Of a stretch of 29,459 nt of DNA, positions 25,628 to 26,701 are shown one piece after another. Origin of the DNA: a virus. A program made the position numbers and the translations under genes. The notes under the pieces are model-generated. The model was not told the origin of the DNA and searched no databases. It saw nothing but the letters and a program-made list of their open reading frames with translations. Numbering within the stretch: position 1 is the first letter of the stretch; each line of letters opens with the position of its first letter. The stretch is from the UHGV virus genome UHGV-0320987; one strand, written 5' to 3'.

Positions 25628-25690
25628 GAATCACGCCTAAGGACCGTGATGCCAGAAGTTCCAGGTGCTTGGCGGTGATGGTTTCCCTTG

Positions 25691-25713
25691 AAGGACTATC
25701 ACCGTCCTTTTTT
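25691..25713 (+). terminator. Intrinsic terminator downstream of the tRNA
   Basis: AAGGAC-TATCACC-GTCCTT followed by TTTTTT. Confidence 0.65.
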
Positions 25714-25791
25714 ACAGCAGGACGCCATTGCGATGACTTCATGCTGTAAACCCGTACAGCCACGGAAGGCAGAACTCATTGCTTCCAGTTC

Positions 25792-25817
25792 GCCCGGTTC
25801 GTCCGGGCATTTTTTTT
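25792..25817 (+). terminator. Second intrinsic terminator between the tRNA and the cargo gene
   Basis: GCCCGG-TTCGT-CCGGGC followed by ATTTTTTTT. Confidence 0.75.
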
Positions 25818-25833
25818 GCCTGATGACCACAAA

Positions 25834-25848
25834 TTACCTTAAAGGTAT
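25834..25848. promoter_or_regulatory. Operator-like palindrome TTACCTTAAAGGTAT (copy 6, one mismatch)
   Basis: Matches copy 2 except the last base; ends 5 nt before the ATG at 25853, overlapping the RBS region. Confidence 0.5.
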
Positions 25849-25852
25849 AATC

Positions 25853-26701
25853 ATGAAAAACTTTAAGGTAATTAGTATGTTCGAATCGTTCAAAGAGCTG
25901 TTTTTATCTACTGCCAACACTGCCGTGCATCGAGCTAAAAACCCTGTGCTTGGTGCTTTTGTTATGTCCTGGTGCGCCTTCAACTGGAAATCACTTCTTT
26001 ATCTATTTTTTAGCAAATCAAATATAATAGATAAAATTTCATATATCTCAGATAACAGCACATGGAAAACTGTTATGTTTTATCCATGCTTATCTGTAAT
26101 TACTATCTGCTGCCTATTACCATGGGTAAACAATATCATTAACGTATGGCAAGCAAAGCCTCTTGATAATAATGACTCAATCGAAAATCACCGGAAGGCA
26201 AGAAAAATACAACGTGAAACACGGCTACAGAGATTGCTGGCTAAAAAAGACATTACTTACGAAAAAGTAAAAACAGGCGCTGAAAAAAACATTCAAGATA
26301 TGAAAGAGGAAATAATTCTTTCAAAAGACAGAATGGGACAACTCACATCTGAATTGAAAGAGAGGGAGACAGAACTGCGCGCAGCACAAGCTCGTATTTT
26401 AGAATTATCTAAGGTTATTGATGAAACAACATCTAAACTAGAAAATCTAGAAAAAGCTCACAAACAATTAAAAGACGAATATAAGTCTTATAAAGAAAGT
26501 ATTCATTTGACAACAAACAACTCAATTGCAAATAGACTTGCTGATCCAAAGATAGTACAAATGATTAACGAGTCTGCAAAAAATTTAGGCATTGCTAAAA
26601 TTAACAACCCAGAAATCAGTACATTATTGAATAATCCACTAGCAAATATAAATGGCGGTTTAAATCCCGCCAATCAAAGAAAATCAAAATCACAAAAGTA
26701 A
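25853..26701 (+). CDS. Membrane-anchored coiled-coil protein of unknown function (cargo gene between terminase and portal)
   Basis: 282 aa from ATG 25853 (the ORF-track start at 25688 would run through two terminators); two hydrophobic segments near the N-terminus, then a long heptad-like K/E/L-rich coiled coil and an N/P-rich tail; markedly AT-rich; opposite strand to all flanking phage genes; uses AGA/AGG Arg codons. Confidence 0.7.
   Translation: MKNFKVISMFESFKELFLSTANTAVHRAKNPVLGAFVMSWCAFNWKSLLYLFFSKSNIIDKISYISDNSTWKTVMFYPCLSVITICCLLPWVNNIINVWQAKPLDNNDSIENHRKARKIQRETRLQRLLAKKDITYEKVKTGAEKNIQDMKEEIILSKDRMGQLTSELKERETELRAAQARILELSKVIDETTSKLENLEKAHKQLKDEYKSYKESIHLTTNNSIANRLADPKIVQMINESAKNLGIAKINNPEISTLLNNPLANINGGLNPANQRKSKSQK

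Follow-up and report, generated by a model that had tools for sequence, protein, structure and literature searches.

What is an AT-rich gene on the plus strand doing between the terminase and portal genes of a prophage whose late genes all lie on the minus strand, and when would it be expressed? The question is raised by the UHGV virus genome UHGV-0320987, a stretch of 29,459 nucleotides (hereafter the window) that represents most of an epsilon15/phiV10-like (Uetakevirus) prophage of Escherichia coli; an identical prophage copy resides at the guaA 3' end in E. coli O166:H15 JNE070796. Read on the plus strand from the portal gene to the gene of the large terminase subunit (TerL), the locus presents a tRNA-Arg(TCT), two terminators, a promoter with a copy of a palindrome, and an AT-rich open reading frame (ORF). 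An initial annotation, made from the DNA letters, described it as a terminator-insulated cargo gene that had come between two normally adjacent genes, and likened its product to abortive-infection and superinfection-exclusion factors. We found all the elements that it listed on the plus strand (the tRNA, both terminators, the operator copy and an ORF of 282 amino acids, aa), as well as the AT-rich composition (GC content of 0.32–0.36 in the cargo gene versus about 0.54 in the flanks) and the convergent end, at which the stop codons of the cargo gene and TerL are 3 nt apart (26702–26704). Our analysis identifies the gene as the cargo of a mobile accessory cassette, the promoter of which carries a putative immunity operator of the prophage, so that in a lysogen the gene would most likely be kept off or low.

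The site itself seems to be older than its present occupant. About 110 loci were recovered with the large terminase, and 93 TerL-portal sites were classified. The terminase-portal gap measures at least 1048 nt in every enterobacterial relative and is reduced to about 320 nt only in distant Pseudomonas relatives; within the enterobacterial gap, a promoter bearing an operator and a leader RNA are both conserved. These comparisons point to an ancestral site, and the idea that the cargo unit had split terminase from portal has to be abandoned. The PHROG 4780 family, to which the cargo gene of the window is assigned below, occupies 8 of the 93 sites, a gene of the gp49/Sf6-gp66 family is found at 41, an unrelated gene encoding up to 201 aa (type c5) at 24, and at least four other unknown genes are distributed over the remainder. 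Relatives with 98–99% identical TerL and portal carry other genes at the site. The phiV10-type phages, whose TerL is 98–99% identical to that of the window, match the window only up to position 25816 and possess, directly after the second terminator, an unrelated 123-aa gp49/Sf6-gp66-family gene that lacks its own promoter and operator; a gene different from that of the window was found here in both phiV10 and typing phage 9. In some prophages the PHROG 4780 cassette stands in tandem with the gp49-like gene, either whole or as a decayed remnant. Of the 5426 complete E. coli genomes, about 62 contain a family member, against 522 with a match to a query that covers the tRNA and the 3' end of the terminase gene. 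The presence-or-absence polymorphism that the initial annotation had proposed to look for at this junction is thus evident in both data sets, the gene being absent from most close relatives. The cargo gene is an accessory gene, one of several alternatives at a hypervariable site, and its description as cargo is supported. The site constitutes a well-defined accessory-gene hotspot in a common enterobacterial prophage group, with about 10% of the complete E. coli genomes matching the site query.

All of the alternative cargo at this site is of unknown function; besides the gp49-like and 201-aa types it includes a 115-aa G/N/V-rich protein, a protein of about 110 aa, one of 99 aa and a membrane protein of 165 aa that weakly matches '2TM-TIR' in PADLOC. 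These alternative genes are positioned directly behind the two terminators and have no promoter or operator of their own. Five loci initially counted as family members (L043, L049, L050, L065 and L068) proved to be an artefact of using the long upstream ORF and were discarded.

Outside this survey, 65 of 72 further family loci, among them Salmonella and Klebsiella prophages, have the gene at the same site and convergent with TerL. At least four family loci (L117, L176, L179 and L184) have no Uetakevirus terminase nearby; judging by their gene content, which includes P22-Cro-like and DUF1367 genes, L117 and L176 are Klebsiella prophages of the lambdoid type. In L117, L176 and L179 the gene came together with a remnant of the upstream terminator, the promoter and the palindrome. 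Since family loci outside the Uetakevirus context retain the terminator remnant and the promoter, positions 25817–26704 are recognized as a mobile accessory-gene cassette consisting of a terminator upstream, an operator-bearing promoter and one gene, and the cassette appears to move as a unit. Its left edge is the second intrinsic terminator (25792–25818, plus strand; hairpin GCCCGGTTCGTCCGGGC at 25792–25808 and tail ATTTTTTTT, that is GCCCGG-TTCGT-CCGGGC followed by T8), where the phiV10 homology stops at 25816; in many relatives, too, this hairpin stands ahead of the cassette.

The cassette is provided with a sigma-70-like promoter on the plus strand (25823–25851) comprising ATGACC (25823–25828), a 17-nt spacer and TATAAT (25846–25851). 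With 10 of 12 positions matched, it is the best promoter-like site of the region, and conservation of its -35, -10 and 5' untranslated region ahead of the family genes extends from E. coli to several divergent relatives, two loci without a Uetakevirus terminase among them. Across the spacer and the -10 lies the putative immunity-operator copy TTACCTTAAAGGTAT (25834–25848, plus strand), which has one mismatch to the core TTACC-N5-GGTAA; this placement is that expected of a repressor site. The initial annotation was right about the presence of this copy, which, however, forms part of the promoter and is more than a neighbour of the ribosome-binding site. The palindrome core is retained upstream of family members across lineages.

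Is this palindrome indeed an operator of the prophage? The motif, a 15-bp palindrome of the form TTACC-N5-GGTAA, is strongly over-represented. A motif scan of the window returned nine matches to TTACCT-N3-AGGTAA (at most two mismatches) against 0.66 expected, and the 41-kb locus with the identical prophage holds 17 TTACC-N5-GGTAA sites (at most one mismatch) against 0.59 expected, all of them inside the prophage span and none in the approximately 6 kb of host flank included. In the identical prophage, three tandem palindromes separate the helix-turn-helix repressor gene rep (product WP_000836290.1) from the divergent cro-like gene. The genome of phiV10 contains 15 sites against 0.8 expected, in intergenic positions of the same kinds. 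Moreover, a perfect operator, TTACCTTTCAGGTAA (25214–25228), overlaps the -10 of the ancestral promoter that heads the whole plus-strand unit (25191–25228, plus strand; -35 TTGACA at 25191–25196, -10-like TACCTT at 25214–25219), and an operator without core mismatches was found at the position matching this promoter in all 15 sites checked across genera. From this distribution we infer that the palindrome is the prophage's immunity operator, serving many promoters and bound by the repressor. Because it overlaps the -10 of the cassette, the prophage repressor most likely holds the cargo gene silent or at a low level in a lysogen, and the gene would be switched on along with the early genes upon induction or fresh infection. 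Such operator control speaks against straightforward expression in a lysogen, and a classical gene that protects the lysogen by exclusion or abortive infection would not be expected to be placed under it. If so, the cargo is wired to the immunity repressor instead of being freely expressed, and this changes the role and timing to be expected of such genes.

As for the product, the longer ORF extends from ATG 25853 to TAA 26699–26701 and encodes 282 aa, and RefSeq annotates a hypothetical protein of this length. We rejected ATG 25853 as the start codon, as it is not conserved and lies upstream of the likely transcription start. The -10 TATAAT ends 2 nt before this ATG, so transcription should begin near 25858, downstream of it, and the region holding ATG 25853 is an untranslated leader in non-allelic relatives. 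The residue equivalent to M9 is the start in every homologue outside the immediate allele group, and a Shine-Dalgarno sequence, AAGGT (25865–25869), precedes ATG 25877. Because the homologues start at the M9 equivalent and the transcript is expected to begin past ATG 25853, translation likely starts at ATG 25877. The coding sequence (25877–26701, plus strand), as delineated by the PHROG 4780 profile, the alignments and the ratio of nonsynonymous to synonymous substitution rates (dN/dS), would thus specify a predicted membrane-anchored coiled-coil protein of 274 aa; the 282-aa ORF exists as first annotated, with its likely start moved.

In 274-aa numbering, the protein has a strong hydrophobic segment at aa 65–89 (Kyte-Doolittle 19-residue mean of up to 2.0), preceded by a marginal one at aa 23–45, which stays below 1.2 in all 19-residue windows (hand-summed 23-residue mean of about 1.25) and has conserved N, W and K residues mid-way. 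Of the two N-terminal hydrophobic segments proposed earlier, the second is therefore clear and the first borderline. Basic residues adjoin both segments on the presumed cytoplasmic side. The long coiled coil that had been noted was recovered by AlphaFold2 as a continuous helix over residues 143–221, with a predicted local distance difference test score (pLDDT) above 90 over approximately residues 150–210, and the weak Pfam, PADLOC and NCBIfam matches of the protein all fall on coiled-coil families. The product would be an inner-membrane protein in which an N-terminal amphipathic helix is followed by a two-segment hydrophobic hairpin, a basic helix next to the membrane and, as a tail, the long coiled coil; both termini and the coiled coil might lie in the cytoplasm.

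The two halves of the protein have evolved differently. An N-terminal module (aa 1–160), comprising the N-terminal helix, both hydrophobic segments and the basic juxtamembrane helix (consensus WQAKPLDNNDSIENHRKAK..RATRLQRLQAKHDVTYDKVKTGAEKDIQ.MKEEI), is conserved, as opposed to the variable coiled-coil tail (aa 161–274); the drop at about residue 160 is abrupt, and past it the tail cannot be aligned between allele types, whose products include proteins of 274, 264 and 246 aa. Where it could be estimated, dN/dS for codons 1–160 ranges from about 0 to 0.09, compared with 0.49 for the tail in the closest pair. Purifying selection on the N-terminal membrane module is strong. In turn, the synonymous divergence (dS) from the nearest allele rises abruptly at about codon 160, from 0.04 to 0.28, an indication that the coiled-coil tail was acquired by recombination; the tail is swapped between alleles.

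Does the protein belong to a described family? It gave a full-length match to PHROG 4780 (E = 1.9e-115; residues 9–278 on profile positions 1–269 of 275), and the other strong PHROG matches were to 13369 and 35327; none of the three has a functional annotation. Searching 1.8 billion cluster representatives with a profile retrieved 316 clusters at E ≤ 1e-10, and the names of the 10 distant relatives that we looked up were all 'hypothetical protein' or absent. PHROG 4780 relatives reach Rahnella, Pantoea and an Advenella metagenome-assembled genome at 24–28% identity. By these profile matches the cargo protein can be placed in PHROG 4780, a large and wholly uncharacterised family, for which our literature searches returned no study; neither the ZX5 paper nor the E. 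coli defence-island paper mentions the terminase-portal site or the operator. Scans of the protein against Pfam, NCBIfam and PADLOC gave only weak matches, all to coiled-coil families: in Pfam there was nothing beyond coiled-coil noise for the protein itself and no domain in 54 distant relatives (E ≤ 0.001), and PADLOC-DB v2 returned only the coiled-coil arms of LmuB, JetC and DruC (E ≥ 1.7e-4), so that the defence-database check suggested at the outset lends the proposed role no support. No exclusion, holin, spanin or tape-measure family of PHROGs was matched beyond the coiled coil. A Pfam match to SieB (PF14163) was found neither for the protein (E ≤ 0.1) nor for the 54 relatives (E ≤ 0.001), and hhalign against lambda SieB gave a probability of 2.5%. 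A profile search of PDB sequences yielded nothing below E = 0.16, and Foldseek, run with models in which the membrane module is uncertain, found no match in PDB or BFVD at E ≤ 0.001. The initial statement that no described family could be matched thus holds, with PHROG 4780 as the only assignment. For now the cargo gene is an uncharacterised member of a familiar class, an ordinary 'hypothetical protein'.

Several known systems offer points of comparison. Phage morons are accessory cassettes that function autonomously in lambdoid and HK97-type prophages, and in the classical sense they are defined by being expressed while the prophage is repressed. The cassette resembles them in consisting of one gene that has a promoter to itself, is insulated by a terminator and is of atypical composition, located between conserved genes and present or absent among relatives; it differs in that its promoter carries the phage's own immunity operator, which travels with the cassette. 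By structure it thus qualifies as a moron, although it is predicted not to be expressed from the repressed prophage. The layout also recalls lambda sieB, which lies on the strand opposite to the pL operon and ends against the N stop (34482–35036 versus 35037–35438), and SieB, judging by its translated sequence, likewise appears to begin with hydrophobic segments and to end in a soluble part. Yet, SieB (PF14163) is a protein of about 184 aa without a long coiled coil, and no homology to the cargo protein is detectable. SieA of P22 is a protein of the inner membrane that keeps related phages from injecting their DNA (PMC10883804). Like the predicted cargo product, it is a small inner-membrane protein of a temperate enterobacterial podovirus with its own promoter; in contrast, it is 162–164 aa long, is predicted to have three transmembrane helices, is made from the prophage and has no sequence relationship to the cargo protein. 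With regard to regulation, a parallel is offered by the C1 regulon/immI module of phage P1, in which one repressor serves many dispersed operators. Here, too, many operators are spread over the prophage, each heading a separate transcription unit, and an isrK/C4-type antisense RNA precedes a Bro-N antirepressor. The repressor belongs to another family, the operator of our prophage is a symmetric palindrome, and the analogy is regulatory only.

How might the cargo protein act? T4 Imm is an early exclusion function, and the best explanation that we can offer, tentatively and as a possible account, is a repressor-controlled cassette that provides early lytic exclusion in the manner of T4 Imm or P22 SieA. 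The protein would be a phage-competition factor of the inner membrane, excluding or aborting a second phage in the early lytic phase, with the conserved membrane module as effector and the variable tail conferring specificity. The likeness to early exclusion arises because the protein is accessory, fast-evolving, membrane-anchored and expected at the early lytic moment; the exclusion function itself is speculative. The abortive-infection or exclusion role proposed initially would stand as an analogy, to be reframed around repressor control. A more far-reaching version seems distinctly unlikely: that PHROG 4780 is a new single-protein exclusion or abortive module under immunity-repressor control, firing at lytic commitment or in the first minutes of infection, its membrane domain serving as effector and its swapped tails choosing the competitor. 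If true, the whole plus-strand site, with promoter/operator, leader RNA, terminators and cargo, would be a regulated hotspot for phage-competition genes. The site supplies a compact set of uncharacterised genes, PHROG 4780 included, for phage-challenge screens.

Several observations weigh against early lytic exclusion under repressor control. The binding of a repressor to the palindrome is itself deduced from where the motif occurs. The site upstream of phiV10 oac also bears on this: oac is annotated for superinfection immunity, and yet the intergenic region ahead of it contains an operator-like site, so a nearby operator alone is no proof of silence in the lysogen. One Klebsiella sublineage has a weakened cassette palindrome (CTACC-N5-GGTAT), and in L117 the palindrome is an orphan, the sole copy within the 12.7 kb examined; because of these two cases, the cargo protein is probably tolerated, and perhaps useful, when constitutive in a lysogen. 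The membrane module is poorly modelled by AlphaFold2 in both of two runs, with alignments of 27 and 81 sequences (pLDDT 50–75; predicted template modelling score, pTM, of 0.26–0.28), and sequence comparison reveals no homology that would tie the protein to exclusion or abortive infection, the database matches appearing to be coiled-coil noise. An alternative is a protein that protects the lysogen by superinfection exclusion or abortive infection and is constitutive from the prophage, like P22 SieA or lambda SieB. The moron-like anatomy (own promoter, terminator insulation, AT-richness, opposite strand) and the layout mirroring lambda sieB would suit such a role, which is most plausible at orphan operators, as in L117, where expression should be constitutive. 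Nevertheless, in the native context the immunity operator covers the -10, the hhalign comparison with SieB was negative, and neither PADLOC nor PHROGs returned an exclusion match; we regard constitutive lysogen protection as unlikely.

We hold it equally doubtful that the protein is an early lytic modulator of the host envelope without an anti-phage role, e.g., a cell-division or membrane-stress inhibitor, a lysis-timing factor or an organiser of replication sites. Membrane anchors joined to cytoplasmic coiled coils are common among division and envelope scaffolds, the operator is shared with early promoters, and the reach of the family into Rahnella, Pantoea and the Advenella genome marks it as an old occupant of the site. 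Yet, about 88% of the E. coli sites lack the family, and a hypervariable, recombined tail fits an arms race better than a conserved host target. An early-expressed counter-defence gene would agree with the presence, behind a repressor-controlled promoter, of small, unrelated genes of unknown function, and the site would then resemble the anti-CRISPR loci inside the structural operons of Mu-like phages, of which the Aca-controlled loci are the parallel. Against it, there is no supporting homology, and anti-defence proteins that are integral to the membrane and about 270 aa long are, to our knowledge, rare if they exist at all; counter-defence is improbable. Finally, a morphogenesis or packaging accessory protein, suggested by the location between terminase and portal and by weak PHROG tape-measure matches (E = 2e-6 to 0.06), is barely credible, and the same applies to a chance ORF. 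The gene is on the opposite strand with its own promoter, the tape-measure matches are confined to the coiled coil (residues ~116–239), the protein shows no homology to a known lysis or morphogenesis family, and the presence or absence of the gene among relatives with 98–99% identical TerL and portal effectively rules this role out. That no real gene exists here is ruled out by the N-terminal dN/dS of about 0–0.09 together with the 316 family clusters.

The upstream half of the site has features of its own. Between the ancestral promoter (25191–25228) and the tRNA we detected a candidate structured RNA (25306–25554, plus strand), recognized by covariation, which forms the leader of the plus-strand unit. 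It is approximately 230–320 nt long, with a nucleotide identity of 69–84% across genera, and RNAalifold predicts six helices with 51 pairs, 16 of which show compensatory changes. The proportion of paired cells is 93.9%, as compared to 36–46% in slid controls, and the covariation score was reached by none of 500 shuffles; invariant G-U pairs favour the plus strand. A search of Rfam 15 gave no match at E ≤ 1. The leader is kept in relatives from other genera that do not have the tRNA. Because it is followed by the two terminators and then, in relatives, by promoter-less cargo genes, it may be an antitermination or processing leader; it may alternatively be an antisense regulator of the late terminase-to-portal transcript. 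The leader RNA may prove to be more novel than the cargo gene itself.

Downstream of the leader RNA lies the tRNA-Arg gene (25551–25627, plus strand; ARAGORN; Rfam RF00005, 73.3 bits), with anticodon TCT reading AGA. ARAGORN did not find it in the sites of 14 checked relatives from other genera. In the AT-rich cargo gene, AGA encodes 5 of 12 arginines. The tRNA is followed by the first intrinsic terminator (25671–25716, plus strand), with a stem at 25671–25706 of 14 bp enclosing an 8-nt loop and a T-run tail, CTTTTTTACA; this terminator is kept in phiV10-type phages.

The genes bounding the site belong to the late region and lie on the minus strand. TerL (26705–28180 including the stop; PHROG 2 and PHROG 5902) is convergent with the cargo gene, and the small terminase gene is found at 28177–28851. 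A weak terminator-like hairpin on the minus strand (26653–26672) falls within the 3' end of the cargo gene, 33 nt past the TerL stop; in the phiV10 record a terminator is annotated directly after TerL. On the other side, the site is bounded by a conserved 68-aa gene (24917–25123; PHROG 831) together with the portal gene (23223–24902; Pfam Head-tail_con, E = 1.6e-187). The major capsid (21231–22217) and tailspike (3149–5464) genes are located farther along the same strand.

Operator copies were also noticed elsewhere in the window. On the plus strand between 6689 and 7761, copies at 6689 and 6782 are followed by an isrK-family RNA (6833–6908; 77.9 bits), a C4 antisense RNA (6933–7018; 77.7 bits) and a Bro-N antirepressor-like gene (7066–7761), an arrangement resembling the immI region of phage P1. 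Another copy (5569–5583), together with a LexA-box-like palindrome, CTGTATAAATATACAG (~5622–5637), lies ahead of a 90-aa ORF on the plus strand (5646–5918), which we take to resemble the LexA-controlled small antirepressor of Salmonella phage SPC32H. Lastly, two operator-like sites, TAACCACCGTGGTAA and TTACCGTTGTGGTAA, are positioned at 28773–28805, just within the 5' end of the small-terminase gene, which hints that the same DNA-binding protein may also touch the start of the late packaging genes.

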